Shown here in pieces: positions 1,514 to 30,606 of a DNA stretch of 64,000 nt. A model generated the notes under the pieces. It was not told where the DNA came from and did not search any database. It worked only from the letters and a program-made list of their open reading frames with translations. Position numbers and translations under genes: made by a program. Each line of letters starts with the position of its first letter. Positions within the stretch are counted from its first letter, which is position 1. The stretch lies in IMG/VR virus record IMGVR_UViG_3300005841_000939; one strand, given 5' to 3'. The stretch comes from a virus. Taxonomy: Duplodnaviria; Caudoviricetes.

Positions 1514-1538
1514 CTATCATGCTTAGGTAATGTGTCAA
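1514..1538 (-). promoter_or_regulatory. conserved counter-oriented TTGACA-N11-CATGATAG element
   Basis: minus strand TTGACAcattacctAAGCATGATAG; related copies at 2192, 4878, 8085, 9224, 11580, 12110, 13105, 14520 (-) and 7040, 30582 (+). Confidence 0.7.
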
Positions 1539-1553
1539 ATATAAAAATGAGGC

Positions 1554-1581
1554 TTGACACCATCCTAATACCCTGTAAAGT
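1554..1581 (+). promoter_or_regulatory. sigma70-like promoter, 16 bp spacer
   Basis: TTGACA-N16-TAAAGT, ATG 6 nt downstream (probably leaderless). Confidence 0.75.
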
Positions 1582-1587
1582 GCAATT

Positions 1588-1809
1588 ATGAACGCAACCA
1601 CCATCAACAATGCGGTTTCCATCATCAGTGCAGGCATCCTTCCGAATGGTGTGAAGGTCCTGGAAATCGGCTACGATGGTACGCATGATGGATATATCAA
1701 TGCGCCCGTTGCTCTGAATTTTGATGGTGTCCAATACGGCCGTTCCTCACACAATTCCGATTCCATGCGTATCACTTATCGGTCTGATAAGAAGTTCGCA
1801 ACCAAATAA
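1588..1809 (+). CDS. hypothetical phage protein
   Basis: 73 aa ORF directly after promoter. Confidence 0.7.
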   Translation: MNATTINNAVSIISAGILPNGVKVLEIGYDGTHDGYINAPVALNFDGVQYGRSSHNSDSMRITYRSDKKFATK

Positions 1810-1823
1810 ACAGGAGAAAAATC

Positions 1824-2135
1824 ATGACCGAAGCCATCGCCAACGTTTTCGCCGAAGCCATCAAGGGGAACCAGGACTATCGCATCGAGGAAAAGCGAAG
1901 CGCAAAACCCGACCCGCAATTCGGCAGCACTTCGGAATTGGTGTGCTACATCGCACATCATAAGAATGGCACGAAGGCCTTGGTGTCATGGAGTGATCGG
2001 TGTCCTGCTTGGTTGAAGGATACAGCAATTCCGTTCAACCCTGCATATCACGGATGGCCCGAAATCAAGCGCCCAGCCCCTAAGAAGGTCCCAAATCGCG
2101 CAAGCAATGGGCGCTTCCTTCCCAAGTCCAAGTAA
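1824..2135 (+). CDS. hypothetical protein with C-terminal RxxNGRF tail
   Basis: GGAG RBS; ends NRASNGRFLPKSK. Confidence 0.7.
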   Translation: MTEAIANVFAEAIKGNQDYRIEEKRSAKPDPQFGSTSELVCYIAHHKNGTKALVSWSDRCPAWLKDTAIPFNPAYHGWPEIKRPAPKKVPNRASNGRFLPKSK

Positions 2136-2140
2136 TAGAA

Positions 2141-2170
2141 AAAGGACAAGTAATGAGCTTGTCCTTTTCT
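2141..2170 (+). terminator. intrinsic terminator
   Basis: AAAGGACAAG..CTTGTCCTTT then T-run. Confidence 0.8.
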
Positions 2171-2227
2171 TACCTTAATTGATTGTGTTTGCTATCATGC
2201 TTTGATGATAGTCAAATGAAAAAACTA

Positions 2228-2458
2228 TCAGGGAGCACAGTTCCTGGTAGCATAAGCCATATTGACCCGACCGCTATAGAGCATGGCGGAGAGCAAAATT
2301 CCAGCAACACCCATGAAAAGAAGAACAATTCGCCAGTTTTCAAGACCATGAATTGGCGTTCCGAACTTCAACATCAGCCAGATGATAATACCAACCAATC
2401 CCATGATCCGAGTGATCAGGATATTGTCATTTCTCAGGTGATTTACTTTGGTATCCAT
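2228..2458 (-). CDS. small membrane protein
   Basis: two hydrophobic segments; own promoter at 2465-2491. Confidence 0.65.
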   Translation of the reverse strand: MDTKVNHLRNDNILITRIMGLVGIIIWLMLKFGTPIHGLENWRIVLLFMGVAGILLSAMLYSGRVNMAYATRNCAP

Positions 2459-2464
2459 GTGATT

Positions 2465-2533
2465 ATATTACTCCTTATATGGTAAAGTCAATAATAAAAA
2501 CAAGGGTTGACTCCATTCTAAGTGCTGTATAGT
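2465..2533. promoter_or_regulatory. divergent promoter pair
   Basis: minus TTGACT-N15-TAATAT (2491-2465); plus TTGACT-N15-TATAGT (2507-2533). Confidence 0.7.
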
Positions 2534-2540
2534 AAGGAAT

Positions 2541-2840
2541 ATGAACGCCAACGACACGCTTTTTATGACGATGGCCACCCCTGAGCGTGATCCTATGCTC
2601 TACATCAATGATGCTGCAAACGCATCGGTCAAGGAGTGCGTGCGACTCCTGAGTGACAATCCGACCAGCAGCATTAAAAAGGTCATCACCATTCAGGATC
2701 ATGGCGTCCATACGTTCACTGGTTACCCGTATTCGCGTGATACGAATATTTTCCATGTGATGGATCGTCTGGATCGGAACATGAATGTTAAGGAAATCGA
2801 ATACAACGTTGATACGAATGCATATGAAGAATCAATGTAA
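2541..2840 (+). CDS. hypothetical protein
   Basis: 99 aa ORF after promoter, AAGGA RBS. Confidence 0.7.
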   Translation: MNANDTLFMTMATPERDPMLYINDAANASVKECVRLLSDNPTSSIKKVITIQDHGVHTFTGYPYSRDTNIFHVMDRLDRNMNVKEIEYNVDTNAYEESM

Positions 2841-3087
2841 GACGGGTGGTCCCGTAGTTGCGCGCTACAAATTCAACGGGCGCACCCGAATCATTTATGG
2901 AAAGCTCCATTCAGTTGATGGAACTTCCTGGGTTACTGTTGAAGTCCAAACATGGAATGATGGAAAAAAGGGTTTTGACTTTTTAGCCTGTAGGAAGTAC
3001 AACGTTAAAGACTGCACGCAAGAGGAAGTAGACTTCTACAACAAACAAGTTGAGGGGTGGGCTAAAGAACCCGCTGCAATAAAATGA
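2824..3087 (+). CDS. hypothetical protein
   Basis: ORF overlapping upstream stop; beta-rich. Confidence 0.6.
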   Translation: MKNQCKTGGPVVARYKFNGRTRIIYGKLHSVDGTSWVTVEVQTWNDGKKGFDFLACRKYNVKDCTQEEVDFYNKQVEGWAKEPAAIK

Positions 3088-3296
3088 GCAAAGCTACTGA
3101 ATTAGTTGAAGAACTGAACAAAAAGCAAAAGGAGTTTTGGGAAGTTGAACGCAAAGAAAACGAAGCATATGCCGAAGCTGAAAAACAATACAATATCAGA
3201 TATGGCATATATAAAGAAATGGAAAAATTGAAGAGAGAACTTGACGAACTTCCTGAGGAAGAAAAAGAAGGGGTTGAGTTCCATAAGCTGCCGTAA
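3084..3296 (+). CDS. coiled-coil hypothetical protein
   Basis: ATGA overlap; E/K-rich. Confidence 0.65.
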   Translation: MSKATELVEELNKKQKEFWEVERKENEAYAEAEKQYNIRYGIYKEMEKLKRELDELPEEEKEGVEFHKLP

Positions 3297-3339
3297 AATA
3301 ATACCTTGCAATAGGTATGAGGACCATATAGTTAAGCCC

Positions 3340-3420
3340 ATGAGCAAAGAAACCAAAAAACTGATCATCGCTTCCATCGGGCTTATCGCCTGCATCCTCC
3401 TGGCTGGCATCGCCAAGTAA
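3340..3420 (+). CDS. 26 aa single-TM peptide
   Basis: MSKETKKLIIASIGLIACILLAGIAK after TTGCAA-N15-TATAGT promoter (3306-3332). Confidence 0.55.
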   Translation: MSKETKKLIIASIGLIACILLAGIAK

Positions 3421-3430
3421 GGGATTCATC

Positions 3431-3643
3431 ATGGTCTCCTTCACAACTGATGTTGTCACTCACACTTTCCATGCTGAATTTTCGGAAGAAGAGGTGAAGG
3501 CTATCCTTCTTGATCATATCCGAAAGAACGATCCCAAGGCGAAGCTGGTGAAGCATGGTTCCGATGAAAAGTTCGATGTAACGTTTCACATCGGGCATGA
3601 CATTCTTCGGAACGTCACTGTCGAATGCAAGGTGATCAAGTAA
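3431..3643 (+). CDS. hypothetical protein
   Basis: 70 aa ORF, AGGGA RBS. Confidence 0.65.
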   Translation: MVSFTTDVVTHTFHAEFSEEEVKAILLDHIRKNDPKAKLVKHGSDEKFDVTFHIGHDILRNVTVECKVIK

Positions 3644-3647
3644 ACAC

Positions 3648-3863
3648 ATGCATCTCCCTCTTGCGTCATTGCGCGAAAAGTTAGGAGTAACTCAGACAGA
3701 GCTTGCCAAGAGGTTGAACATTTCCCAGCCCTCAGTTTCACATATCGAAAGCAGCCAAAACCTGCACGTCAGTACATTGAAAAAATATGTAGAGGCTCTC
3801 GGTTGTACGTTGGAAATCGTTGCAAAATCCCCTGGCAAAAAATCCATCATCCTTTTTAATTAG
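3648..3863 (+). CDS. XRE-family HTH protein (antitoxin-like)
   Basis: LREKLGVTQTELAKRLNISQPSVSHIE..STLKKYVEALG signature. Confidence 0.9.
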   Translation: MHLPLASLREKLGVTQTELAKRLNISQPSVSHIESSQNLHVSTLKKYVEALGCTLEIVAKSPGKKSIILFN

Positions 3864-3872
3864 AAATTAATC

Positions 3873-4103
3873 ATGGAATATTCCTTCACTATCCCCAATC
3901 CATCCTTCATCGGAAATGTTCCTGTCAAGAAGGGTGATGTAATTTCCTGGGGTGGATCAGATAATGAAGGTAAGTCCTCAGTGACATACGCTTTCTATAT
4001 CAATGATAAAACCCGTGTTGAGAATAAAGGGGATATGCTGCATAAGTATCTCACTCGCACCAGGAATCGTGCTGACGCTGAGAAGCTCCTTAATAAGAAA
4101 TAA
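3873..4103 (+). CDS. hypothetical protein
   Basis: 76 aa ORF in operon. Confidence 0.6.
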   Translation: MEYSFTIPNPSFIGNVPVKKGDVISWGGSDNEGKSSVTYAFYINDKTRVENKGDMLHKYLTRTRNRADAEKLLNKK

Positions 4104-4158
4104 GGCTTGCATTCTCCTAATCCCTTGTACAGTAGAGTTATCACAAGGGATAACAATT

Positions 4159-4638
4159 ATGACGCAGGTCAATTTTTTCTATCGCAATGATCAGTTGATC
4201 CTCGAATACTATATGATCTATTTCGAGATTCCTTTCTCAATGGATCCTACGGGTGAGGATGACATGGTTGCCTACGATGATTTGGTGCATGTTGCTACCC
4301 GAACTTTTGAGAGGCATTTTTCCCCGATTCATTCGGAACGTACGCACATGCCGGAAGAGCATCCCATCCTTGCTGAAAGTGAGGACTTCATTCTCTTCCT
4401 GGCAAACAATGGCCAGACCTGGGCAATCGTGCTGGGCATCAAAGTAAACAGCACCATTCCGAATACATATGAAACGGGTGCAAAGATTCAGGCCTTTTTC
4501 CGTGGCATGATGATCGTCTATCCGAACTCCTGGCGATACAGGACCTGCGATTTGAGCACATCACCAATCAAAGTTGGTGAACAAATTCCGGCATATGTGA
4601 CTTCGTGTGCATGGTGCAGAGAAACTGTTCCTGCATAA
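4159..4638 (+). CDS. hypothetical protein
   Basis: AAGGGA RBS; promoter TTGCAT-N15-TACAGT at 4107-4133. Confidence 0.65.
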   Translation: MTQVNFFYRNDQLILEYYMIYFEIPFSMDPTGEDDMVAYDDLVHVATRTFERHFSPIHSERTHMPEEHPILAESEDFILFLANNGQTWAIVLGIKVNSTIPNTYETGAKIQAFFRGMMIVYPNSWRYRTCDLSTSPIKVGEQIPAYVTSCAWCRETVPA

Positions 4639-4647
4639 AAACGTTGA

Positions 4648-4865
4648 TACCCTGGGGGGCTTTTAAGGCCTCACCCCAGGGTATCCCCTTTATTGGCGGA
4701 CCAAGTTGCGATCTTGGTCGGATAGTGATCAAACTTCCTTGCCAACAGGATTGATTTGTATACCGCTCTCCATCGAAGCGGGGCATTTAAGCTAGTTGTA
4801 ATCAACGAGTGATCAAACACGGGGGATTGGTTACCTCCATCGTCCTATTACAAGCAGGACTGCTT
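4648..4865 (+). ncRNA. candidate structured RNA (about 220 nt)
   Basis: run of hairpins CCTGGGG/CCCCAGG, GACCAAG/CTTGGTC, CCGCT/AGCGG, GTCCT/AGGAC in an intergenic gap. Confidence 0.35.
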
Positions 4866-4964
4866 TGCCCTTACGTTGTATCATGTCATTAGATACTGTC
4901 AAGGTTATATTTAATAAGGTATTTGAGGTATTGACTTGCCTTATATGTGATGTAGTATGACGGT

Positions 4965-7032: not shown

Positions 7033-7144
7033 ATTTTTGTTGCATTGTCTAGAAGCATGATATAGGATCCTGACAGTCCTGTTATCTTCTTGACTCAAAG
7101 ATGTCTAGGGTATATGAATAGTATTAAGCCCTAAAAGCATCCAT

Positions 7145-7384
7145 ATGTTTACTACTGCAACACATTATTACATTGTCTTCAAAGCAAGTAATGGAGAAGT
7201 CCTTTTCTTGCATGAGGATGATGATGGTTACAAGTTGCGTTTAAAGGCTGATAATGATGATTCAATTTGCTGTTTTGAATTAGGATCGGAAGCACATTAC
7301 GAAATGGGTCGGGCTGAATTGACCTTTCCGAAAATAAGGCTTGAAATCCTTCCTGAGGCGTGTACAGTGTGCGTAAGAAAGTGA
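7145..7384 (+). CDS. hypothetical protein
   Basis: 79 aa ORF downstream of TTGACT at 7090. Confidence 0.6.
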   Translation: MFTTATHYYIVFKASNGEVLFLHEDDDGYKLRLKADNDDSICCFELGSEAHYEMGRAELTFPKIRLEILPEACTVCVRK

Positions 7385-7392
7385 ATCATACC

Positions 7393-7953
7393 ATGAAGAA
7401 CATCCTCAACATTCTCTCACTGCTGGTCATCTGCATCGCGCCGATCCTGGCTGCTGATAGCAAGCCCACGCTCCCCGGAAAGGTGGCGTACGAAAAGGCC
7501 TTGGATGATGCAACCAAGGTGTTCACCCAGGCCAAGCTGAAGGCACTCGACAAGTTCAAGAAGGACCTCAAGAAGGCCCTCGCTGATGAAGTGAAGGCTG
7601 GCAATCTCGACAGTGCCAACGCCATTAACCTCGAAGTCAAGGCCCTCGATGACGAACAGGCCAAGCTGACGGGAATGGACGATGTCAATCCCAAGGTGGC
7701 CCTGCTCGGCAAATGGCTGGTCACCCGAACGGATGGCCATGTCGGTGTCTGGATCTTCAAGGAAGATCAGACAGTAGTGATGGATGGAAAGAACTTCAAT
7801 GGCAAATGGGCCATCGAAGGGACTGTCGCAAAAATCGTCTGGATGAACGATCCGACGAAGTGGGACACGTTCACGCTTCCGGTTAGTGACAAGACTTCGG
7901 GTGATGGCTGGAATATCCCGAAGGGTGGGTTGTCAGCAACGCGCCAGAAGTAA
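7393..7953 (+). CDS. secreted protein (signal peptide, coiled coil, beta domain)
   Basis: MKNILNILSLLVICIAPILA signal peptide; GC-rich biased codons. Confidence 0.8.
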   Translation: MKNILNILSLLVICIAPILAADSKPTLPGKVAYEKALDDATKVFTQAKLKALDKFKKDLKKALADEVKAGNLDSANAINLEVKALDDEQAKLTGMDDVNPKVALLGKWLVTRTDGHVGVWIFKEDQTVVMDGKNFNGKWAIEGTVAKIVWMNDPTKWDTFTLPVSDKTSGDGWNIPKGGLSATRQK

Positions 7954-7959: not shown

Positions 7960-7991
7960 AAAGATGGATCGTAATTGATCCATCTTTTTTT
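7960..7991 (+). terminator. intrinsic terminator (probably bidirectional)
   Basis: AAAAGATGGATC..GATCCATCTTTTTTT. Confidence 0.85.
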
Positions 7992-8182
7992 ACCTTTATA
8001 CTCGGACCATGAACTATTGGGATTTTGTCAAAGAGTTTTTTACCTCAGAAGCTGGGCAATGGTTCAGTATGTGCCTTTTCCTTTCTATCATGCTTATTCT
8101 TTCAATCAAGGGGTATCATTGGATTAGGGATCATATCTAAAATAAGGTTTGACTTAGGAATTTGGGCCTTATACTCAATATT

Positions 8183-8908: not shown

Positions 8909-9187
8909 ATGGACATCGGAATTATCTGCCCAAGAACGCATGTTGCCTATTATCGTGGATGGCTTGCTGAACCATCAAAGCACAAAGCCATTAGCTTGAA
9001 ATATTTCGGAAAGGCACCAGTGCATCCTAACATCAAGCCTGAAGCTCAGGGCGTTTGGATGGAAAGTGAAATCTGGATCCTTGGTGTGTTCAATGTGAAA
9101 GAAGCAGAACGGCAACTTGATCTCCTGATAAATTTATGGTCAGGAAAGAATCCTGCTGATTGGCAATACAGAAGGACGAAGGACTAG
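8909..9187 (+). CDS. hypothetical protein
   Basis: AGGA RBS; followed by terminator 9181-9203. Confidence 0.65.
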   Translation: MDIGIICPRTHVAYYRGWLAEPSKHKAISLKYFGKAPVHPNIKPEAQGVWMESEIWILGVFNVKEAERQLDLLINLWSGKNPADWQYRRTKD

Positions 9188-9299
9188 AAATAGTCCTTTT
9201 TTTATTTGAACACCTAATCCCCTTTATCATGCTTTAAAGAATATCAAGGTATATTCCTATAAGGATTTTAAATGCCTTGACTTTATTAATTAAAGGTAT

Positions 9300-10661: not shown

Positions 10662-11108
10662 ATGGCAAAATACTACGTCCAGGCCTTCTATGCTGATGGT
10701 CGCCCCATCTTGGGAAATGGCGATGGTCAGACTGTCATCAAAGCCAAGAAGCCTCTCCTGACTGATGCATGGAAGCGGATCGAAAAACTTCCCCTCAGCA
10801 TGCTGACGATGCACAAAGGAGACATCAAATATCAACTGGTCACCGAATATGGTACGGTCCTGCGAACTGTCATCCGTTCGGCAACTGCTGTGGAAACCGA
10901 ATGGTCAAAGCTGGCCCCGCTTCGTCAGCAATGGCATGATGTGAAAAAGCAGGGAAAGCGTTTGATGGTGCAGATTGATGGTGGCCACATGAGGCTTCCC
11001 GTCACTGGATTCCGTGAGCATCCGCAGTATGGAACTGCACAATTCCAAGTCTCAGGCCGGCAGTGGAACTATCTGAATGCTGCTTTATTCACCTTCTTCG
11101 GAGAATGA
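10662..11108 (+). CDS. hypothetical protein
   Basis: 148 aa ORF in operon. Confidence 0.7.
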   Translation: MAKYYVQAFYADGRPILGNGDGQTVIKAKKPLLTDAWKRIEKLPLSMLTMHKGDIKYQLVTEYGTVLRTVIRSATAVETEWSKLAPLRQQWHDVKKQGKRLMVQIDGGHMRLPVTGFREHPQYGTAQFQVSGRQWNYLNAALFTFFGE

Positions 11109-11110
11109 TC

Positions 11111-11374
11111 ATGAGTGAGTCCTTTTCGGTTCGTCTCAATCTGAACTATGAAAATGTTGGCGATTCCGCTAACAACTTAGTCAGTGATACCAAGGACGTT
11201 AATGTGAATGCACTCCCTTCCCAAGGAGTGACTATTTACATGGAAACGAAAACTCATCAGATTGAGGGAGTTGTTACTCGCCCTCCCCATTTGATGATCA
11301 TCGGCCCGTTTACTGGCACGTACCTCATTCATGTTCAGGTCACCAGTTACAAAGCCAGGCAGACCAAGGCCTAA
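11111..11374 (+). CDS. hypothetical protein
   Basis: GGAG RBS. Confidence 0.6.
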   Translation: MSESFSVRLNLNYENVGDSANNLVSDTKDVNVNALPSQGVTIYMETKTHQIEGVVTRPPHLMIIGPFTGTYLIHVQVTSYKARQTKA

Positions 11375-11544
11375 GCAGCGTCAAACGATTCCTCAATCCG
11401 TTCAATCTGAGATAAGGACAAGTGGATTCCCCATTTGTCCTTTATCTTTTTTTGCAGTTCCACACCATTATTGTCAAGGATGAGGGTTTCAAGCTCCTTC
11501 TGGCTGATTGAATGCTTTTCGGAGATGCGTTGCCAGTAAATCAT
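11371..11544 (-). CDS. 57 aa hypothetical protein
   Basis: MIYWQRISEKH..; preceded by minus-strand TTGACA-N16-TAGCAC element (11604-11577). Confidence 0.45.
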   Translation of the reverse strand: MIYWQRISEKHSISQKELETLILDNNGVELQKKIKDKWGIHLSLSQIERIEESFDAA

Positions 11545-11653
11545 AAGGGTAGCCTGAAAGGGGTGGTGTTCCCAATGTGCTAATATGCTTATTGCATCTG
11601 TCAACAACCAAAAAATAGTTTGTGTCCTTGAATATAAGGTGTAGTATGCATAT

Positions 11654-11866
11654 ATGACAACCAAGGTTACGAAAATAAACAACCCAGGTTGTGCTGCTCC
11701 CTGCTTCAAAGCAGAATCCTCAGAGGAACTTACAGACACTATCTGTGAGGATCTACAGCATAAAGCAGGATATCCTCCTGCTGGCTATGGAATGAGCCGA
11801 GTCAAGTACGAAAAAGAAGGTGATACTTTCATCGCCACATGGTCCTGTCTCCCTTCAAGTGACTGA
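11654..11866 (+). CDS. hypothetical protein
   Basis: 70 aa ORF. Confidence 0.65.
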   Translation: MTTKVTKINNPGCAAPCFKAESSEELTDTICEDLQHKAGYPPAGYGMSRVKYEKEGDTFIATWSCLPSSD

Positions 11867-11876
11867 AAGGTCATAC

Positions 11877-12080
11877 ATGCTGCTCATGTCATCCAATGCG
11901 TTCCTCCCTCATCACCTTTCAGTCCTGAATGAACGTGGTGAAATCAACCGAGTTCAAAAAGGAGTGTTCATCAATGTCACCAAGGTTAATAAATCGTTGG
12001 TGCAAGTGAATTTCTCAAAGATTCAGGATGCTGAATTCATCGTGCAGCCCTCTCAGGAGGTGGTGGCTGGTGGGGTCTAA
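11877..12080 (+). CDS. hypothetical protein
   Basis: AAGGT RBS. Confidence 0.5.
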   Translation: MLLMSSNAFLPHHLSVLNERGEINRVQKGVFINVTKVNKSLVQVNFSKIQDAEFIVQPSQEVVAGGV

Positions 12081-12235
12081 CCCTGCCTTCACCTCGCGGC
12101 TGCCGTTAGTTATCATGCTTGAGGGTAGATGCAAGGATGAAGGTGAGAAGGAATGTCTACGGAAAACATCCTTGACTCCTAGAAAGAGTGTGCATGATGC
12201 GAGGTATCACCCATACCCATACAAGGGAAACGACC

Positions 12236-13032: not shown

Positions 13033-13064
13033 AGATCCCTGGACTAACCACCCAGGGATTTTTT
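13033..13064 (+). terminator. intrinsic terminator
   Basis: ATCCCTGG..CCAGGGAT then TTTTTT. Confidence 0.85.
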
Positions 13065-13314
13065 ACCTGCAAAATTCCTGCGTTTTTTCAAGAATTTATG
13101 GCGGCTATCATGTTTTCTCTAGTTGTCAAGGAATCCTTTAAAAGTGGTTGCCTTATATAAGAAGAAAGGGGTCGTTCCGAACTGATTAGGAAGACCTACG
13201 AAATATTCCTTGACCTTGAAATAGAGGCATTAGATTGAACACATAACCCAAGCATGGGAAATGTAGCAAAGCTACCAAACCCCATGCGCAACTTCCCAAG
13301 AAAGGGAATGCATC

Positions 13315-14042: not shown

Positions 14043-14495
14043 ATGAGTAGAAAAAATGTTAAATGGAGGAATGGGAGTATTCTCCCCGAACATGCTAGGG
14101 CGCTAGAAACTTTTCACCTGCCCAAAGAGATAGCAACCTTTATTCCGCCAACTGTTGGAACTCATCAGATTAACCATCGCTTTACCGTCACCATCCAGGG
14201 AAGTATGGCAATCAGACAATCATATGAAGAAATGGTCCCTATTGGTTTGGATATGCGTTTAGCTTTTGCTACAGCCATGAACCATATCCCTAAAGAGCAA
14301 TGGGAAACGGTATGGAATGCAATTGCAAACGCCATGGAAAACCCCTTAGCGTTCAATCAAATTGCTGATCGTATCATTGATGAAGCAGAAACACACATCC
14401 CGAATGCTCAAGTAAAGATTCCCCAATCAAAAAGAGGGCCGACATTGTGGGCAAAAGATACAAAAATAAATGTTGAAGTTGAAGAACTTGAATAA
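14043..14495 (+). CDS. hypothetical protein
   Basis: follows TTGACA-N15-TAAACT promoter (14007-14033). Confidence 0.7.
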   Translation: MSRKNVKWRNGSILPEHARALETFHLPKEIATFIPPTVGTHQINHRFTVTIQGSMAIRQSYEEMVPIGLDMRLAFATAMNHIPKEQWETVWNAIANAMENPLAFNQIADRIIDEAETHIPNAQVKIPQSKRGPTLWAKDTKINVEVEELE

Positions 14496-14624
14496 TTTTT
14501 TAATTTCCTCCAATGTCATCTATCATGCTTATATGAAATGTCCATAGGAATTTGAACATAAAAATATTGTTGACATAGGTTTATATTCTCCACAATGGAC
14601 GTATCACCACATAGGAACGCAATC

Positions 14625-16048: not shown

Positions 16049-16303
16049 ATGATAATAATGAAAATAATTAAATACATTGAACAGATGCCCGTCAAAGGAA
16101 AAGAACATATTCCTGTCAAACCAGATTTAGGCATTGGAACTATTGTTGAATACATGGGAACTGTTTGCACTGTGCAACATAGAAGGCAAACAGAATTAAA
16201 TTCAGGTTGGTTATATACCCTTTTGACACCTGATGGAAAATTTTTACCTGTCTATGGTACAGAAGCTATCATGCATTATAATAAGGTCAATAATAAAAAA
16301 TAG
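16049..16303 (+). CDS. hypothetical protein
   Basis: 84 aa ORF. Confidence 0.6.
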   Translation: MIIMKIIKYIEQMPVKGKEHIPVKPDLGIGTIVEYMGTVCTVQHRRQTELNSGWLYTLLTPDGKFLPVYGTEAIMHYNKVNNKK

Positions 16304-16343
16304 GTCTTGACCTTAACTCATTTATATGTAAGCTATAAACATC

Positions 16344-17287: not shown

Positions 17288-17692
17288 TTGAATAAAAGAA
17301 TACTTGAGGAAGCTGTAAAGATTGCCCTCAAAAAATTAAGTTCCCATCCTCAATATTCTTGTTATCCTCATTACTCATTTCTTGTGCAGGGAAACAAAAT
17401 CCTTGCTACGGGAATGAATAATACCGGCAACTCAATGCCAAGGCATTATGGCCATTACTCTAGGATAACTGATGGTTTACCCAAAACCCATGCAGAAGTG
17501 GTTGCATGGAAGAAGGGAAGAGGTCTGATGGACAAATCAAAGCCTTGGGAAATGATTAATATCAGGCTCAATCGTCAATCAAAGATCATGAATTCAGCAC
17601 CTTGCCCTGATTGTTTTACATTAATGAAGTCCTTGGGCTGTACGAATATTCATTATTCTACGGATTTAGGTTTCGTTAAATTGCCGACTTGA
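17288..17692 (+). CDS. cytidine/deoxycytidylate deaminase-family protein
   Basis: HAE and PCPDC zinc motifs. Confidence 0.85.
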   Translation: MNKRILEEAVKIALKKLSSHPQYSCYPHYSFLVQGNKILATGMNNTGNSMPRHYGHYSRITDGLPKTHAEVVAWKKGRGLMDKSKPWEMINIRLNRQSKIMNSAPCPDCFTLMKSLGCTNIHYSTDLGFVKLPT

Positions 17693-17736
17693 CTCTCACC
17701 TTAAGTATGTTAGTCCATTAATCCCCAGGAAACACC

Positions 17737-18042
17737 ATGGCCAAGATCAAGACCAACGACATGAGCATCAACCCTGATGCAATGCCCAAGAGCAACACCC
17801 AGGAATCGTCTGCCAACGGAAAGGCAAAGCGTGTTCGTGAACGCAAGGTCCTGCCCAAGAATCTGCGTTCGCATCGTCGTGGCCACCGGGCGCGTGCCAA
17901 TCGCATCTACGTCCAGACCAACAAGGCCGCCATCGTCTACATCCCTGCTGCCGAAGCTGATAAGCTGGTAGCTGAAGGTTCGGGCAAGTACATTGCTCGC
18001 CAGAAGGCCAAGGCTATCCTCGCCAAGAAGAAGGCTGCGTAA
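17737..18042 (+). CDS. small basic protein
   Basis: R/K-rich, AGGA RBS. Confidence 0.7.
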   Translation: MAKIKTNDMSINPDAMPKSNTQESSANGKAKRVRERKVLPKNLRSHRRGHRARANRIYVQTNKAAIVYIPAAEADKLVAEGSGKYIARQKAKAILAKKKAA

Positions 18043-18631: not shown

Positions 18632-18665
18632 AAAAGGCGTTGATTTACTTCACTTGTATGATAAA

Positions 18666-18752
18666 CGGCTTGTGGCGGAATTGGCAGACGCGGGGGACTT
18701 AAAATCCCCTCCCAGCAATGGGGTGCGGGTTCGAGTCCCGCCGGGCCGACCA
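18666..18752 (+). tRNA. tRNA-Leu(UAA)
   Basis: cloverleaf with long variable arm, loop CT-TAA-AA, encoded CCA. Confidence 0.95.
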
Positions 18753-19923: not shown

Positions 19924-20535
19924 ATGCTCGAAGAAACCTCCCAAACGGTGGCTGAAGAAATTATTGCCGAAACTCCTGCCTTATCTGATGTGTCTGAAAC
20001 TGTTGAAAGTAATGAGGAGATGCAGGCGCGTATCATGCGTCGGAAAACAATCAATGCCGAAATAATACGTTCCCTCAAATCCAATCGCAAGATCAATAAA
20101 TGGATGACGGGATCCAGAGATTTTAACGAAGAAGATATTGTCCGTGATGAAGATGGAAACGAAGTAAAATCCGAATCACACAAAGAAGATAACAAATGGC
20201 CACAGCTTGAAGAAGTAGTAAACCCTGTCGGCACTCTTGAAATTCTGCTTGTGGTTGGCTGTTTGGAAGAGTTGACCCGTGTAGATCCAACGTGGGTTTA
20301 TTTGAAGAATGAACCATCATCAATAGTCAAACGTGTCAGAAAATGGTTGATCAATAATAACCAATCAATTATAGGTGCCTTTGAACATGGCTCCTTAACT
20401 TCTGCAATTGAATTCTGTAAAATCCGAGATGATAAATGGGGAATATGGGAATATCTCAGCACTCCTGAATCAACTGTTGAAGGATATTTCCCAGCAGAAA
20501 ATATTGTTGACAAGGTCCAAGATCCCGTACAGTAA
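19924..20535 (+). CDS. hypothetical acidic protein
   Basis: 203 aa; promoter TTGACG-N16-TACAGT upstream. Confidence 0.7.
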   Translation: MLEETSQTVAEEIIAETPALSDVSETVESNEEMQARIMRRKTINAEIIRSLKSNRKINKWMTGSRDFNEEDIVRDEDGNEVKSESHKEDNKWPQLEEVVNPVGTLEILLVVGCLEELTRVDPTWVYLKNEPSSIVKRVRKWLINNNQSIIGAFEHGSLTSAIEFCKIRDDKWGIWEYLSTPESTVEGYFPAENIVDKVQDPVQ

Positions 20536-21674: not shown

Positions 21675-21810
21675 GGAAATAAAGGGAGCTAATAGAGAAG
21701 TTCGCCAAGAAATGATCCGTAAGCACGGTGATTCTTGGAAAGTTCCTGCTCCCAAAGTCTTCAGAGATAAGAAGCGTGAAGCTAGCCGACGCTGGAATTC
21801 TGACGATTAA
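21661..21810 (+). CDS. 49 aa basic peptide
   Basis: MKKTKEIKGANREVRQEMIRKHG..; below track cutoff. Confidence 0.5.
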   Translation: MKKTKEIKGANREVRQEMIRKHGDSWKVPAPKVFRDKKREASRRWNSDD

Positions 21811-21970
21811 TCCAGAGTTCCTTGGCTGTCTCAGCCATAAACTTTGTTCGAGTAAGCTTTTCTAATGCATCTGTGAAGTGTTCACAGTCAAAGCTTTCCT
21901 CCATGATGCCAGTAATCATTTCCTCTGATAGGCCAGTTTCGGATGATAGCTGGGTTAAATGAGAACTCAT
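21782..21970 (-). CDS. small hypothetical protein
   Basis: own minus-strand promoter TTGACA-N15-TAGAAT (22006-21980) and GGAG RBS. Confidence 0.7.
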   Translation of the reverse strand: MSSHLTQLSSETGLSEEMITGIMEESFDCEHFTDALEKLTRTKFMAETAKELWINRQNSSVG

Positions 21971-22142
21971 CAGGTCTCCATTCTAAGAACGCTTGGCATG
22001 TGTCAACAATACCTTCTTAACATGCATTTAAGCCTAGTCAAGAATTACCTTAGTATCTGATTAGACCTAAAAATGTTTATTGCTTTTTCACCTTAAGTCT
22101 TTACAGTCATCAACATACCAATCATACAGAAAGCGAATAATC

Positions 22143-24488
22143 ATGCTTGTAGCAACCAAGTCGGAACAAGTCGGTCGCCATGGGGAAATGAAAGTTTCCA
22201 CTCTGACCATCGATAATCCTGGCATGATGCTTGCGCACATGTTTGATACGATCTATACCAACAAGGCAAAAATCGTTGTTCAGGAGATCGCTTGCAATTG
22301 TCGCGATGCTCACAGAGAAGTAGGAAAGGCTGATGTTCCGATTACCATCAAGCTGCCGAACAAGCTTGACACTTCTTTGCAGTTCATTGATGAGGGTCCA
22401 GGCCTTTCTCCCCAACGAATCGATGCGATATACAACAGTGTCGGTGCATCTACCAAGCGCGGCAGCAACGATCAAACTGGCGGGTTTGGTATCGGATCAA
22501 AAACTCCTTGGTCCCTGACCAACATGTTCCTGGTCAAGACAACTGCCTGGGAAGGAGAAGGTGAAAATCGCGAATTGGTATATCGCGAATACACCATGCT
22601 CCGTGAAGGATTATTTTTCACTTGCAATCAAACTGGTGATCCTGAAGTGAAGGACCCTGCTCTGAATAAGAGCGGCACCATTATTGAAATGCAACTGGAG
22701 GAAAAGGAATGGCAGAATATTGAATCAGAAATTCAGAAAATCTTTATCTCATGGGATCCCAAGCCAAATATCCTTGGTTATTCTAGCGGTGAATGGGTTT
22801 GGAAAACCAGACTTGATCCGCTGTTTGAGGGAAAAGGTTGGAAAGTTTACAATGGTCAGGCTTATTACAATCACACGCATGTCTTCATGGACAATATTCC
22901 ATATCCGTTGGATTGGAGCGCAATGGAAACTGCGTTTGTCAGCTTGATGACTGATGTTTCAATTCCTGGAACTGCCACGGAAGAAATGAATGACATCGTC
23001 ATCAATAAGAACAATGATCCGATGACAAGTGCAAGAATTCGCACGTTGTGGCATCAGGCAGCAATCCTGCAAAATGTAACTTGCGGATTGTTCTTCAAGA
23101 CGGGTGAACTGGATCCCGCATTGAATCGTGAATCGTTGCAGTATACCCCTCAGACTGTTCGGCGCATTGTGGCTCGCATGTTGGCTGCAACTCAAATCAT
23201 CCTCACCACATATCAGAAAAAGGTTGAAGCTGCACCAACGTATGTTGCTGCATTGACCATGTGGAAGGAGTTGGCCAGCAACGTTATCAGAAATCTTATT
23301 TCAGGTTCGCGTGCCAACTGGCGGGGACTGCCTCTGAATACTGCCATGACGATTCACTTCCCTGAATCAGTCATTGTAAACAAAGTGATGCTCCGCAGTA
23401 ATTATAGCCGTCGCGCCAAGTTTTCAATGCGGCAAGAGGAAAGCATCAAACTGGAGGGAATTGATCAAAAGAAGCAAATTTTCGTCAACACTGGCTACAA
23501 CGAACGCAATGTACGCCATTACATGGAGCAAAATAACTTTGGTGGAAATAGCTATGACAGGGAATGCTTATATTTCCTGAGCTTCAAGCCAGGGTTCTCT
23601 GATCGTACTCTTCCACTCCCTGACATTGATGCTAAGGTCATGGAAGAAAGGTTCTTCAAGTCTGATCTATGGGTCGGTTTGGAACATGGTGGCAACAGTG
23701 ATCAGTTCCCGAAAAGGCCGATTATCAGAAATTCAGCAACGGGAAGTCGCGGACCGAAGAAGGATCCCCTCGCTGCCAATATATGGAATTCTGGTTTGAA
23801 GAAATTCCATGCATCTGATGTGATGCTGTCAGTTGACGAGGAAGATGAATCTGAGGATGCCGATCAAAAGGACATCGTCTATGTCTTGACTTTCCGAAAG
23901 GACTGCAACGAATTCAATGGCGACCAATTGAATACGTTGGAACATGCATTGAACATTTCCATCTATGGCGTTTCGGAACGCTTGAAGCATCGCATCCCTG
24001 ATCATTGGGTATCACTTGGGGAAAAGGCACGTGAATGGTTGTCTCAACAGCCTTTGGATTCAACTATCGCCGAATACATTCGCAAGCGCAATATCAATTC
24101 GGTGATGATCAATGCTTGCAAGGATATTTCTGCATCATTTGCAAGCATCATGGCAGATCCGGATTTGGAACAACTTGTCACTGCACCCGATTGGATTGAA
24201 ATGGCCCGTCTCTTCAAGACGACATTCAATTCAGAAACTCAATTGGATACGACTCCTGAATCCAATATCCTCAAGAAAATCAAGGACGTCAACAAAGTCC
24301 TGAGCAATCCACTGACGATTCCCGATATGCCTGAAGCAGAAGAAACCTCTCCTGAAGCAGAAGCTTTGAAAGCTCTGGTTGAAAAGTATTACTTGGTGAG
24401 GCAGGCTGCTGCAAGCTATACGCTTGATGCAACAGTGCTCAATCGCATCATTCCAGACCTGGCTATCTTCATTAATGCCAAAGGATAA
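22143..24488 (+). CDS. rIIA: rIIA-like protein (GHKL ATPase N-terminus)
   Basis: IYTNKAKIVVQEIACNCRDAH, DEGPGLS, STKRGSNDQTGGFGIGSK motifs; upstream of rIIB. Confidence 0.9.
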   Translation: MLVATKSEQVGRHGEMKVSTLTIDNPGMMLAHMFDTIYTNKAKIVVQEIACNCRDAHREVGKADVPITIKLPNKLDTSLQFIDEGPGLSPQRIDAIYNSVGASTKRGSNDQTGGFGIGSKTPWSLTNMFLVKTTAWEGEGENRELVYREYTMLREGLFFTCNQTGDPEVKDPALNKSGTIIEMQLEEKEWQNIESEIQKIFISWDPKPNILGYSSGEWVWKTRLDPLFEGKGWKVYNGQAYYNHTHVFMDNIPYPLDWSAMETAFVSLMTDVSIPGTATEEMNDIVINKNNDPMTSARIRTLWHQAAILQNVTCGLFFKTGELDPALNRESLQYTPQTVRRIVARMLAATQIILTTYQKKVEAAPTYVAALTMWKELASNVIRNLISGSRANWRGLPLNTAMTIHFPESVIVNKVMLRSNYSRRAKFSMRQEESIKLEGIDQKKQIFVNTGYNERNVRHYMEQNNFGGNSYDRECLYFLSFKPGFSDRTLPLPDIDAKVMEERFFKSDLWVGLEHGGNSDQFPKRPIIRNSATGSRGPKKDPLAANIWNSGLKKFHASDVMLSVDEEDESEDADQKDIVYVLTFRKDCNEFNGDQLNTLEHALNISIYGVSERLKHRIPDHWVSLGEKAREWLSQQPLDSTIAEYIRKRNINSVMINACKDISASFASIMADPDLEQLVTAPDWIEMARLFKTTFNSETQLDTTPESNILKKIKDVNKVLSNPLTIPDMPEAEETSPEAEALKALVEKYYLVRQAAASYTLDATVLNRIIPDLAIFINAKG

Positions 24489-24555: not shown

Positions 24556-25488
24556 ATGTCAAAGAACAAGCGCAAAATCATCCTCACTGAGAACCAGGTG
24601 GCACTGACCATCAAGGGGCAGACGAGAACCATCAACAAGAAACATCCTGCATTCAAAAAGGTGCTGGACCTCATTCACGTCGGTGGCAGTGATGAAGACC
24701 TGTTGAAGGCCATCGAACCCGTCAAAGCCATCAACACCAGCAAGAAGGCTGCGAATTGGGGCATCAAGGTGGTGGATGGTTCCATCAAAATGCAGGAAGA
24801 GGTGCTGCCCGCTGATATTGCGGATACCATTCTCGAATTCAAAGCTGCAAACGAACCGTTCGAACCGCTGGTGAAGTTCTACGAGAACTGCAAGCTGAAT
24901 CCTGATGTGCGTGTCAAGGAAGGTCTCTTCCGGTTCTTGAAGGCTCATCGCTTCCCTCTGACGGAAGATGGTTGCTTCATCGGCTATCGCAAAGTCGCAA
25001 ACGACTTCAAGGACTTCTATACTGGCAAGCTCGACTTCTCCCCCGGCCAGACTGTGACCTTGGATCGCAGTCTTTGCGATTCGGACAATAACAATACGTG
25101 CTCCCGTGGTTTGCACGTCGCCAACTTCCGCTATGCGAAGGAAGTCTATCATCCTGGCTCCGGCAAGATGATCAACGTCAAGATCAATCCCCGTGATGTG
25201 GTCGCATTCCCAACGGACTATCATTTCGAGAAAATGCGCGTGTGCGCAATGTACGTCATCGGCGAGAATGGTACCAGCGAAGCTGATGCCCAAGAATATC
25301 AGGAGCTGTTCAAGCAGCAGAATCCTGATTGGAAAAAGAATGACAAGGACGTTGACGAAGCTGAGGAAGAAGACATCGAAACTGGTGCTGTCAGTGTCAA
25401 GGGCAATCCCCAGGATGCTGTCGAAATTCCGGTCTGGATGTCACAGAAGCGTGACGCTCGCGGTCGCTTCGGCAAGGTCAAGAAGTAA
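24556..25488 (+). CDS. rIIB: rIIB-like protein
   Basis: LTEDGCFIGYRKV, CSRGLHV, VKINPRDVVAFPTDY..KMRVC motifs; own promoter TTGACA-N16-TAGAAT (24492-24519). Confidence 0.92.
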   Translation: MSKNKRKIILTENQVALTIKGQTRTINKKHPAFKKVLDLIHVGGSDEDLLKAIEPVKAINTSKKAANWGIKVVDGSIKMQEEVLPADIADTILEFKAANEPFEPLVKFYENCKLNPDVRVKEGLFRFLKAHRFPLTEDGCFIGYRKVANDFKDFYTGKLDFSPGQTVTLDRSLCDSDNNNTCSRGLHVANFRYAKEVYHPGSGKMINVKINPRDVVAFPTDYHFEKMRVCAMYVIGENGTSEADAQEYQELFKQQNPDWKKNDKDVDEAEEEDIETGAVSVKGNPQDAVEIPVWMSQKRDARGRFGKVKK

Positions 25489-26528: not shown

Positions 26529-26551
26529 CATATTACCTAAAAGGTACTATC

Positions 26552-27013: not shown

Positions 27014-27035
27014 TCAACAATTCATATGTTGAGGG

Positions 27036-27066: not shown

Positions 27067-27173
27067 ACCTCTAGATCACTGTTGACAGGGGTTAGCATCT
27101 GAGTATAAATCAGGAATCATCAATAGCGAAGCAACCCTACTTCGTAAACACACCACTGACAAGGAAATCCTCC

Positions 27174-27803: not shown

Positions 27804-27894
27804 ATATCCCAACAACTTAAGGTCTTGACTGGACCCTTGGTGATGCTATATTTAGCAAAGCCAAGGGTCTAACTTTTTAAGGTCTGCCGCCATC

Positions 27895-28485
27895 ATGCGC
27901 TTCATCACTCTCAAAGAATGCCAAGATGTTTTGAATGAAGCTGCACGTGCCTTTCAGAATTCAAATACATCTGATAAAGCAAAAAGGGCTGTGGCAAATA
28001 CCCAATACACATTGTTGCTAGAATACAAAAACAAGAGGAATAACTTCGGCCAATGTCAGTGGGACCGAGAAACTAATACTCATGGAATCCTCATTAATGG
28101 TTCGTTAATGAGCAATATGAGTAAAGAGGACTTCCAAGATACATGCAGGCACGAATTCGCCCATTTCATCGTTCATGCATTGTGTTCGGCAAATCTTTTG
28201 AAAAAGAATGTCCGTTCACATGGTGCTGAATGGAAAGCAGTATGCCTGCTTGTTGGTGCTCGGCCTCGTACTCATACCAAATCTGCCAAAGCAGGTGTAT
28301 GCGGTCTTGCAGGGTATCTCATTGATAACAAGAAGAACAAGATACATGCTATCTCCCTCAAGACACTGAATAAATGGAAAAAGAAAGGGGCATTCAAATC
28401 TGGAAGATGGACTATCAAAGCCGCAGACCGTTCTGAAATCATGGATCCAAAAATCTTCAAAGACCTTGAGAAATTCAAGCTCTAA
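27895..28485 (+). CDS. SprT-like zinc metalloprotease
   Basis: HEFAH zincin motif, HGAEWK motif. Confidence 0.88.
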   Translation: MRFITLKECQDVLNEAARAFQNSNTSDKAKRAVANTQYTLLLEYKNKRNNFGQCQWDRETNTHGILINGSLMSNMSKEDFQDTCRHEFAHFIVHALCSANLLKKNVRSHGAEWKAVCLLVGARPRTHTKSAKAGVCGLAGYLIDNKKNKIHAISLKTLNKWKKKGAFKSGRWTIKAADRSEIMDPKIFKDLEKFKL

Positions 28486-28495
28486 AGGACACATC

Positions 28496-28735
28496 ATGGC
28501 CACCAATATCTTCATGTGCAAAAACGGAGCGTACTGCTGCGTGGTTGCTGCCAGAACTGAGGGTTCTGCACTCCGTCAGGCTCGAAACATCATGGATGCT
28601 CATCATGTTCAGGTCTGTCCAGCAACCGTTGAGGATGTTAATCATGTGATTGGCATGGGAAGTCATATTCACAACATGACCGAAAAACAGGTCAATAAAT
28701 GGCTCAAAAAGAATGAGGTGGAACATGCAGGATGA
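28496..28735 (+). CDS. hypothetical protein
   Basis: AAGGA RBS. Confidence 0.65.
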   Translation: MATNIFMCKNGAYCCVVAARTEGSALRQARNIMDAHHVQVCPATVEDVNHVIGMGSHIHNMTEKQVNKWLKKNEVEHAG

Positions 28736-28973
28736 AACTGGCATCCTCATCAAACCAACTGATGTGCCAGCCGATGCAAAGGAACAAGACCTTCGCAAAA
28801 TTGAATCCCTCATTGAGGCTGATTTAGAAAAGAAATACGGAAAGGGAATCTGGAATACACTTGAATCCCTCCAACTCATCGAAGAAGCCTTGAAGAAGAT
28901 TCGTATCCAGAAGGATCAGAAGATCATGAAAGAACTTAACAAACAAGGAATATCGTTTATCAAACCCCGATAA
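28725..28973 (+). CDS. hypothetical protein
   Basis: GAGGTGG RBS. Confidence 0.6.
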   Translation: MQDETGILIKPTDVPADAKEQDLRKIESLIEADLEKKYGKGIWNTLESLQLIEEALKKIRIQKDQKIMKELNKQGISFIKPR

Positions 28974-29092
28974 ACAGATAGAATGGAGTCATATGCCGTC
29001 AGAAACCTCTGTAGTGAATGACTCTAGCAATAATCAACCCTTGACCCTATGTCCTTGTGATGTATTCTGGTGGGAGCAAGAGGGATGGGACC

Positions 29093-29332
29093 ATGAAGCA
29101 GATAAAGCTGATCAAGAGCCCCTCTCCAGAATCTACTTGCACGGATAATCCCCGCAAAGAAGAATGGCAGGCTTATAGAGCCATACCATCCGATGATAGA
29201 GTTGAATACCCCAAGGTCTATAATCCTCTCACTTGGACATCCAGAATCTGGAACCAAGTCCTCATCATCGTTATCATCCTGTCAGCTTTCTTCTATCTCT
29301 GGTGCTTCAACACCATTCCCCAAGGATTCTGA
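29093..29332 (+). CDS. membrane protein (C-terminal TM)
   Basis: promoter TTGACC-N16-TATTCT at 29041-29068. Confidence 0.6.
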   Translation: MKQIKLIKSPSPESTCTDNPRKEEWQAYRAIPSDDRVEYPKVYNPLTWTSRIWNQVLIIVIILSAFFYLWCFNTIPQGF

Positions 29333-29334
29333 TC

Positions 29335-29616
29335 ATGTGGAAAGAAATCAAAGAGAAGGTTGATAGCTCCTGCTACTTCTTCGCAATCGTTGGGGCAACC
29401 CTGACCTTTTGCGTATGCTTCTTTTTGGCACTCAAGTCTGGTGCGCTATTCAGCATCATCGGATTGGGCTTGGTAATTCTCTCACCCATCATCGGCGCGT
29501 TCATTGGTGGCATGATCTTTGGGGTGTTCTTGGCATTCCCCCTCATTGTGGTTTGGGAAGTGCTGATCCTCCCCATCGTTCGCATCCTCAATTCTCACAA
29601 CAGCCGTCATCACTGA
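29335..29616 (+). CDS. integral membrane protein
   Basis: three hydrophobic segments, AAGGA RBS. Confidence 0.7.
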   Translation: MWKEIKEKVDSSCYFFAIVGATLTFCVCFFLALKSGALFSIIGLGLVILSPIIGAFIGGMIFGVFLAFPLIVVWEVLILPIVRILNSHNSRHH

Positions 29617-29618
29617 TC

Positions 29619-29933
29619 ATGCCCTGGCCAGGTAAATGTCCCTATTGCAATGAGGTCATGACTACTCGGCGTGGACCGTCAGAAGTCACTAATGACCATA
29701 TCATCCCTTTAAACAAAGGTGGTGATACGAACGATGCCAATACCATCTACGTGTGCCAAAAGTGCAACAACGTCAAAAGCAACCATCTCCCATGCGATCC
29801 TGAATGGGGCAATGATCCTAGAAGAGTCATCATCACTAATCGTGTATTGAAAATTATCTTTGATAGGAAATTGGCGTACCCTTGGGAAAAACACGTCAAA
29901 GACCTTAAAATAGATAAACAAGATGCCTCATAA
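29619..29933 (+). CDS. HNH endonuclease
   Basis: CPYC..DHIIPLNKGG..N..CQKCNNVK. Confidence 0.9.
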   Translation: MPWPGKCPYCNEVMTTRRGPSEVTNDHIIPLNKGGDTNDANTIYVCQKCNNVKSNHLPCDPEWGNDPRRVIITNRVLKIIFDRKLAYPWEKHVKDLKIDKQDAS

Positions 29934-30038
29934 TAGAGAAAAATTTGGTCCTTGCGAATATGCACTGATCATTGTATTCTCTCTCGCAAGCCACTTATTT
30001 TACAGTATCTTAGAATACCTTTTCACGAAATTCTGGTA

Positions 30039-30194
30039 ATGCCCACGTCCTCCATCAGCGAACGCCTCAAACTCCACACTTCATTAGCCATGGAGCTTGT
30101 AGACGTAATTGATCAACTCAAACAAGATCCAGCTAATGAAGAGTTGAAAGCTCGGCGTCTTGAACTCCAAGCCCGCATTGATGAGTCAGCTTAA
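30039..30194 (+). CDS. small coiled-coil protein
   Basis: 51 aa; last + strand gene before the strand switch. Confidence 0.55.
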   Translation: MPTSSISERLKLHTSLAMELVDVIDQLKQDPANEELKARRLELQARIDESA

Positions 30195-30356
30195 AATATC
30201 CTTTCGGAATTGAAAGAATGAAGATTTTAAATTATTGATTTGCTCTGCATAAATTTTTAGATGATCATATCTACTATTGCGATGATATAAGAATCCAACG
30301 AAGGCTACATTTTGTCCCTCTACATTACTTAAATCTGGTTCAAAAATATATTTCAT

Positions 30357-30563
30357 TCAATATCCTGACAGCATGTTGAATCGTTTTCGGTCATCTAAGA
30401 AATCCCGAACAATATCTGATATAGATTTTGGTTCAATCAATGGATGATCATACCTATTGTTTTGTTGTTCTAATATAAAAGGAAACATAACATCAATACC
30501 ATATATTGATTCAAAATCTTGTATGGCTTCTTGAGTGTATTTTATTTTCATGATTCTATTCAT
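30357..30563 (-). CDS. KxxR-family protein (divergent)
   Basis: QNNRYDH. Confidence 0.5.
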   Translation of the reverse strand: MNRIMKIKYTQEAIQDFESIYGIDVMFPFILEQQNNRYDHPLIEPKSISDIVRDFLDDRKRFNMLSGY

Positions 30564-30606
30564 AGGATTCTAAGTTTCTTATTGACTTCCGTCTCAAGCA
30601 TGATAG

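Follow-up and report, generated by a model that had tools for sequence, protein, structure and literature searches.

A repeated, mostly backward-facing promoter-like element among the early genes of a giant uncultured T4-like phage

Introduction

What does a short DNA element do when it recurs along an array of small phage genes and points, in most of its copies, against the genes around it? The question is raised by a 64,000-nt stretch of viral DNA (IMG/VR record IMGVR_UViG_3300005841_000939; Duplodnaviria, Caudoviricetes), hereafter the window, which derives from an uncultured giant T4-like soil phage and represents an early region with rIIA (22080-24488) and rIIB (24556-25488). The element, a -35-like hexamer followed by an 11-base box, had been noticed in a first-pass annotation of the window, where it was taken for a second promoter class or a docking site for RNA polymerase or a regulator. 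It is tentatively explained here as a lineage-specific second class of promoter that would fire from hexamer towards box, mostly in antisense, and would insulate or silence early cassettes.

The rIIB protein of the window is on record from a 379,560-bp contig, and the closest database relatives are metagenomic huge phages with approximately 30% protein identity. From position 1 to 30190 the genes are small, lie mainly on the plus strand and have a GC content of approximately 45%; minus-strand genes follow from about 30190 onward. The ordinary promoters of this phage conform to TTGACw-N15/16-TAnnnT. Between 1 and 16.3 kb, most small genes are parted by hairpin terminators and most are also flanked by TTGACw promoters. 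At several ordinary promoters the ATG lies 6-7 nt past the -10 box, which indicates leaderless mRNAs, and several of the leaderless genes have no Shine-Dalgarno sequence.

Structure and enrichment of the element

In the window the motif is bipartite and oriented, spans 25 bases and reads TTGAyw-N7/8-AAGCATGATAG. Nine canonical copies and five variants were found, with fewer than one expected by chance. The 11-mer CTATCATGCTT, allowing at most one mismatch, had 10 matches against 1.84 expected, and none of 100 shuffled sequences reached 10. A position weight matrix (PWM) was trained on the nine core copies and applied with a cut-off of at least 16 bits, the expectation being taken from composition-matched simulations. 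This gave 14 sites against 0.5 expected, five of them outside the training set (22017, 7040, 11580, 17689 and an intragenic site near 20037); the copy at 4878 scored weaker. The enrichment over background that the first-pass annotation had named as a test is thus present, and every position at which it had placed the motif holds a copy. Three copies were added, at 16266-16290, 17689-17713 (+) and 22017-22041 (-).

When the copies were aligned on the box, each had a TTGAyw hexamer at a distance of 7-8 bases and a T-tract beyond the hexamer, the latter being present even at the copies without a divergent partner promoter (2192, 30582, 11580 and 7040). Conservation breaks off right after TAG, and the similarity is limited to 17 positions. 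Since the N8 spacer and both flanks are unconserved, the copies are not recent duplicates, which points to selection on the motif itself.

The hexamer hardly varies in TTG and is degenerate at positions 4-6, the pattern to be expected if it is recognised by sigma region 4. TTGACA is matched at 4 or more of 6 positions in 12 of the 14 copies, and at three positions in the two TTGCAT copies. The hexamer has the same consensus as the -35 box of the ordinary promoters, and its pattern of degeneracy is likewise the same. With a hexamer that has the properties of a -35 box, the element is best read as a second promoter class or an RNA-polymerase docking site. This proposal of the first-pass annotation is supported in part, namely in that the motif exists, is biased in orientation and lies behind gene ends or terminators.

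Orientation and position

Thirteen of the 14 copies lie outside open reading frames (ORFs), though 83% of the region is coding. Ten copies (the nine core copies and 4878) are antisense, and all of them oppose the local genes; they are located 0-131 nt past a gene end, and five of them are 14-39 nt from the T-run of a terminator. The other four, all variants (7040, 11580, 17689 and 22017), are aimed at a gene. The earlier description of the element as lying downstream of a gene or terminator is therefore upheld; its further statement, that each copy stands back-to-back with the next plus-strand promoter, fails at 2192, where the copy is 12 nt past the stop codon of a minus-strand ORF of 76 aa.

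The hexamer stands at a fixed distance from the box but anywhere between about 15 and 80 nt from the next plus-strand promoter. In 4 of the 12 copies examined, or in 5 when an imperfect stem seen by eye at 1514 is counted, a hairpin followed by a T-rich tail was found within approximately 135 nt in the direction of the element. Two terminators, at 2139-2169 and 13035-13059, are also recognised as such when the minus strand is scored.

Promoter readings of the box

Three overlapping promoter-like readings are supported by the 8-mer CATGATAG, and the choice among them was made on motif anatomy only. At the ordinary spacing of 15-16 bp from the hexamer, TG falls at -15/-14 and TA at -12/-11, and the last position of the -10 hexamer is T in one of the 14 copies. 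This agrees with the earlier remark that TA stands where an ordinary -10 box begins and that the final T is missing.

At a spacing of 10-11 bp, CATGAT (variants CATATT, TATGTT and CATGTT) takes the place of the -10 box. This gives yAnnnT, with A at -11 and T at -7, in all 14 copies, and a G stands two bases past the hexamer in nine. The 11-base box then extends from -15 to -5, a stretch which is the contact zone of sigma domains 3, 2 and 1.2 (extended -10, -10 and first discriminator bases). The third reading is on the opposite strand, where TATCAT (variants TAATAT and TAACAT) has no conserved -35 box and the inverted hexamer falls at about +7 to +12.

Spacer histograms showed separate peaks, one for sense TTGACw-TAnnnT at 15-16 bp (16 sites) and one for antisense TTGACw-yATGwT at 11 bp (6 plus 1). 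The four gene-facing copies have no T at -7 when read at the ordinary spacing, and the short-spacer reading therefore fits them better. Firing from hexamer to box is favoured by the -35-like hexamer, the fixed hexamer-box distance, the T-tracts at copies without a partner promoter and the four downstream genes.

One of these genes is the minus-strand 57-aa ORF at 11371-11544 (11544->11374), which lies 35 nt downstream of the variant at 11580..11604 (-; box AAGCATATTAG) and which the first-pass annotation had pointed out. A homolog of the same length (P0123, on a 2.5-kb NCBI contig) shares 77% identity and 91% positives with its product, so that the ORF is probably a real gene; this in turn supports promoter activity from hexamer to box.

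Proposed mode of action

Under the favoured explanation, host RNA polymerase would bind the element and initiate from the hexamer towards the box. Because CATGAT is only 10-11 bp from the -35-like box, the polymerase would probably be re-targeted by a phage factor; a need for such a factor would put the antisense programme under temporal control. From the ten backward copies, short antisense RNAs would arise, and polymerases would run head-on into the preceding cassette at its terminator or 3′ end. Early cassettes would in this way be sealed off from each other, or early genes would be helped to shut off. Where a terminator lies ahead, the RNA would be short and complementary to the 3′ end of the mRNA of the cassette before; where none does, the antisense RNA would be longer. 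Two compatible mechanisms may operate, antisense pairing as for lambda oop, and head-on collisions that enforce termination and insulate the cassettes. The four gene-facing variants, three of which have boxes of the form yAT(G/A)TT, would serve as promoters of the genes that they face. We infer polymerase binding, direction of firing, factor dependence and function from the sequence and setting of the copies.

If this explanation holds, antisense transcription or polymerase collision would belong to the regular, repeatedly used means of early-gene control in phages and would not be an oddity of a few model phages, and an undiscovered polymerase-retargeting factor would be pointed to. If the box is only a -10 box for the sense strand, the arrangement would be one of ordinary tandem promoters. 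What is new here is a conserved backward box, and with it another lineage-specific repeated signal around rII, within a layout that is otherwise known from T4-type phages (see below).

A more far-reaching version is rather improbable. In this version sigma would be re-targeted by the phage itself, with a factor that enables the polymerase to use a -35-type hexamer spaced only 11 bp from an extended -10 box, and a timed, genome-wide backward programme would insulate and then shut off dozens of early genes.

Several observations weigh against the favoured explanation. A spacer of 11 bp lies beyond the range of unmodified sigma-70 holoenzyme, and no sigma, MotA or AsiA gene was among the best 25 of the 47 families listed for 65 ORFs of the window. 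Read at the ordinary spacing, the -10 hexamers are TAGTCG, TAGCAA and the like (TAGnnn). In most of the 12 examined copies, a clear terminator ahead is missing; the 40-110 nt transcripts ending at bidirectional terminators that had been predicted by the first-pass annotation would fit the four or five copies with a hairpin and not the remainder. With the distance to the next plus-strand promoter varying as it does, a fixed-geometry effect on that promoter is unlikely. Finally, the opposite strand, which the first-pass annotation missed, offers the better -10 box, TAnnnT in 14 of 14 copies, and a sense or bidirectional promoter therefore stays a live rival.

Alternative explanations

Such an other-strand or bidirectional promoter, though a live rival, is rather unlikely. 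Either (C)TATCAT(GCTT) would be a promoter that lacks a -35 box, transcribes in the local sense direction and forms a tandem with the ordinary early promoter, as at T4 genes with early plus middle or late promoters, or the element would be a pair of overlapping divergent -10 boxes. The opposite-strand match includes the variants, and 12 of the 14 copies would then run with the local genes, upstream of the next gene. Symmetric bidirectional promoters, reportedly described by Warman et al. in 2021, are said to have overlapping divergent -10 elements in which A-11 is paired to T-7. At the sequence level, overlapping -10 boxes of this kind (TATCAT/CATGAT, TAATAT/CATATT or TAACAT/yATGTT) occur in 14 of 14 copies, with A-11 of the top strand pairing with T-7 of the bottom strand. 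The element differs from such promoters in having C at -12 on one side and a -35-type hexamer that belongs to one side only, at a non-standard distance. Moreover, no conservation was seen by eye 14-18 bp upstream of TATCAT, and the one further block of conservation lies downstream, at about +7 to +12, and is the inverted -35 consensus, whose presence would be left unexplained. A transcript with a leader would also bury the start codon of those leaderless genes whose ATG follows 6-7 nt past the ordinary -10 box without a Shine-Dalgarno sequence, and at 2192 no plus-strand gene follows.

It is also doubtful that the element acts as a non-productive dock or insulator. In this case the holoenzyme would be held through the -35 hexamer, TG at -15/-14 and T-12/A-11 at 15-16 bp, and would rarely escape for want of T-7; the parked polymerase would stop read-through from the upstream cassette or make more polymerase available locally to the early promoter next to it. 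In the box, TA stands exactly at the start of an ordinary -10 box with TG one base upstream, and the placement directly behind terminators is suited to such a role. However, T at -7 is only weakly depleted (about p = 0.08, binomial estimate), the conserved AAGCA in the spacer is left unexplained, and four copies resemble working promoters for genes. Parked open complexes are, in addition, usually dislodged by elongating polymerase ("sitting duck" interference, phage 186).

Still less probably, the element serves as an operator to which a sequence-specific DNA-binding protein of phage or host attaches, independently of polymerase recognition, and so times or silences the neighbouring early promoters. 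A sharp 11-base box with a second half-site at a fixed distance would be compatible with an operator, and an HTH_3 protein and AT-hook proteins are encoded in the window. Against this, the two halves form neither a repeat nor a palindrome, one of them is identical to the -35 consensus, and the neighbouring promoter is found at about 15-80 nt with the element in both orientations.

The PeSL units of T4-type phages are approximately 70 bp long, far longer than the similarity among the copies. A scar of recombination or cassette shuffling, kept alike by recombination in a PeSL-type repeated regulatory cassette, is very unlikely, for although the PeSL architecture is present (stem-loop, AT-rich stretch, early promoter and small ORFan genes; PMC4122927), the similarity stops at the 17 positions, with spacer and flanks unconserved, and published PeSLs have no such box.

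Comparison with known systems

In PeSL units, a stem-loop and a near-consensus sigma-70 early promoter bound small ORFan genes in a hyperplastic region by rIIA/rIIB (PMC2839356, PMC4122927). The window has the same arrays of ORFan genes with stem-loops and early promoters by rIIA/rIIB, including stem-loops directly upstream of an early promoter between ORFan genes. Published units are without a conserved backward box, whereas here the element is the conserved part and the stem-loops and spacers differ. The element is thus an addition to the PeSL unit.

In lambda, the oop counter-transcript lowers the expression of its gene, and paQ is a CII-dependent antisense promoter. The oop unit (pO-oop-tO) produces a short counter-transcript whose start is just past the 3′ end of a gene and which extends back into that gene (PMC5869508). 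Ten copies of the element fit this unit in orientation and position. The lambda units are single and have ordinary or CII-dependent promoters; here about ten copies of one non-canonical box are spread over the early array. A terminator corresponding to that of oop lies ahead of only 4 of the 12 copies examined, or 5 with the stem at 1514.

A phage-specific antisense promoter, P001, is conserved among LUZ19/phiKMV-like phages and has been proposed to block read-through into early genes (PMC10914365). It does not belong to the host sigma-70 class but is used by a phage polymerase of the single-subunit type, and each genome has one such promoter, in contrast to the present element, which looks sigma-70-related and is repeated at many cassette borders. 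Elsewhere, head-on collisions were tested as a driver of bidirectional termination (bioRxiv 10.1101/2022.10.23.513370).

The MotA/AsiA middle promoters of T4 have a box centred at -30, 11-13 bp from TAnnnT, require a phage factor and are in some cases in tandem with early promoters (PMC2988021). The likeness lies in an upstream box much nearer to the -10 box than a normal -35 box. The differences are that the box here is the -35 consensus and not TGCTT, that the spacer is approximately 2 bp shorter and that most copies are antisense. The opposite strand does contain TGCTT, but TAnnnT follows about 15 nt (+/-1) on in only one of nine copies checked by eye (9224), and a MotA middle promoter was rejected.

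As an ordinary early promoter, the element has the -35 hexamer TTGACw and lacks TAnnnT, with T at -7, at 15-16 bp. A T4 late promoter was rejected, the box being AAGCATGATAG and not TATAAATA, and none of the TATAAATA copies in the window being at element sites. There are two of these in the window against 6.2 expected, which fits an early region that avoids late promoters. For sigma-54 (TGGCAC-N5-TTGCW, with GG and GC 10-11 bp apart), which the motif does not fit either, alignment by eye found no GG and a distance of 14 positions from the G of TTGAC to the GC of AAGCA. In comparison with sigma-28/FliA (TAAA-N15-GCCGATAA), also made by eye, the upstream box is TTGAC and not TAAA, GCATGATA has one extra base and the spacing is 2 bp shorter. 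For a sporulation-sigma reading (CATnnTA), the upstream half or the spacing is unfit, and DnaA-box and IHF readings gave no match past 5 bases.

Occurrence in other genomes

To judge from the searches made, the motif is lineage-specific. A pattern scan of IMG/VR gave 52 single matches, about what chance would give by estimate, and no genome with multiple copies of the motif. In the part of a metagenome collection that was scanned, only single matches were present among the matches listed, again about chance by estimate, and three distant huge phages gave one match in 1.5 Mb. The 80 IMG/VR loci with relatives of rIIB (31-42% identity) gave 26 weak PWM matches in 1.35 Mb, which is background-like, and no multi-copy locus. 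Neither rIIB itself nor its closest relative (P0002, 56% identical) was found in IMG/VR or GTDB genomes. When the 10- and 11-mers were looked up as literal text in the literature, nothing but primers and unrelated sequences came up.

Two of the relatives carry repeats of their own. In L229 (IMGVR_UViG_3300044716_000732), GTCATACAAA occurs 31 times in 20.8 kb, often as divergent pairs behind terminators and once directly before an ATG; in L252 (IMGVR_UViG_3300032223_001557), GTGTAATACA occurs 19 times. Both repeats are probably lineage-specific promoters. With other repeated motifs present in this region of the relatives, repeated transcription signals that are specific to one lineage seem to be common around rII in the group.

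Individual copies and neighbouring features

The canonical copy at 1514..1538 (-), TTGACA-N8-AAGCATGATAG, is aimed into the terminator behind gene 1028-1456, and 15 nt separate its hexamer from the -35 box of the plus-strand promoter at 1554. That at 2192..2215 (-), with an N7 spacer, is aimed into the bidirectional terminator at 2139-2169. The minus-strand 76-aa ORF beside it (2458->2228) encodes two hydrophobic segments, has no PHROG match and lies inside the plus-strand gene array. It appears to be leaderless and driven by an ordinary minus-strand promoter at 2491 (TTGACT; TAATAT/TATAAT), which stands back-to-back with the plus-strand promoter at 2507, the whole unit occupying 2228-2491 (-).

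Five further canonical copies are found between 8 and 15 kb, all on the minus strand and antisense. The copy at 8085..8109 (TTGATT) is behind gene 7360-7953 and its terminators, and that at 9224..9247 (TTGATA, N7, box end TAA) is aimed into the terminator at 9178-9199. Copy 12110..12134 (TTGCAT, box end TAA) follows gene 11820-12080 by 29 nt, copy 13105..13129 (box AAACATGATAG) is aimed into the bidirectional terminator at 13035-13080, and copy 14520..14544 (TGGACA) is 24 nt behind gene 14043-14495. At 16266..16290 (-), the antisense canonical copy with TTGACC and box ATGCATGATAG overlaps the final 13 codons of ORF 16049-16303, its hexamer being 16 nt from the -35 box of the plus-strand promoter at 16307.

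The ninth canonical copy, at 30582..30606 (+), directly adjoins the stop codon of gene 31119->30607 on the minus strand and is 18 nt from the start of minus-strand ORF 30563->30357. Two small ORFs of 56 and 68 aa are present on the minus strand within 30186-30563, and the switch from plus to minus strand is accordingly near 30190 and not 30600. The copy is antisense to both of its neighbours, as had been claimed.

Among the variants, 4878..4902 (-) combines a perfect TTGACA with the box TGACATGATAC and is antisense, upstream of the plus-strand promoter at 4931. The weak copy at 7040..7063 (+; TTGCAT, box end TAT) is in sense orientation, 26 nt upstream of the ordinary promoter at 7090 and of gene 7145-7384. 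The 57-aa gene behind the variant at 11580 converges on the plus-strand ORF 11063-11374 and contains a sequence scored as a plus-strand terminator (11414-11442).

The remaining two variants were found with the PWM, outside its training set. That at 17689..17713 (+), TTGACT-N8-AAGTATGTTAG with TATGTT at N11, is in sense orientation, 23 nt ahead of gene 17737-18042. The other, at 22017..22041 (-), TTGACT-N8-ATGCATGTTAA, is in tandem with an ordinary minus-strand promoter at 22006, 10 nt upstream of it, and with the ORF that follows. This unit (21782-22006, minus strand) consists of the promoter, TTGACA-N15-TAGAAT, and an ORF of 62 aa (21970->21782) without a PHROG match, and is divergent from rIIA.

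A search of positions 1-31000 with Rfam detected nothing but three tRNAs, and PHROGs gave no match for eight small ORFs flanking the copies. At 18640-18666 (+), TTGATT-N11-TATGAT stops 3 nt short of the predicted 5′ end of a tRNA-Leu (18666), and may be a promoter with a short spacer from which transcription would start almost at the 5′ end of the mature tRNA.

The T-run of plus-strand terminators is followed by ACCT at 7987, 8037, 13060, 16241, 18789 and 27062 (+), with related forms at 2169, 4830 and 6620. The sequence TTTTTACCT occurs eight times in the window against 0.97 expected; six of these occurrences are at terminators in the plus-strand gene region, including terminators without the element. 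Read from the opposite strand it is AGGTAAAAA, which is Shine-Dalgarno-like.

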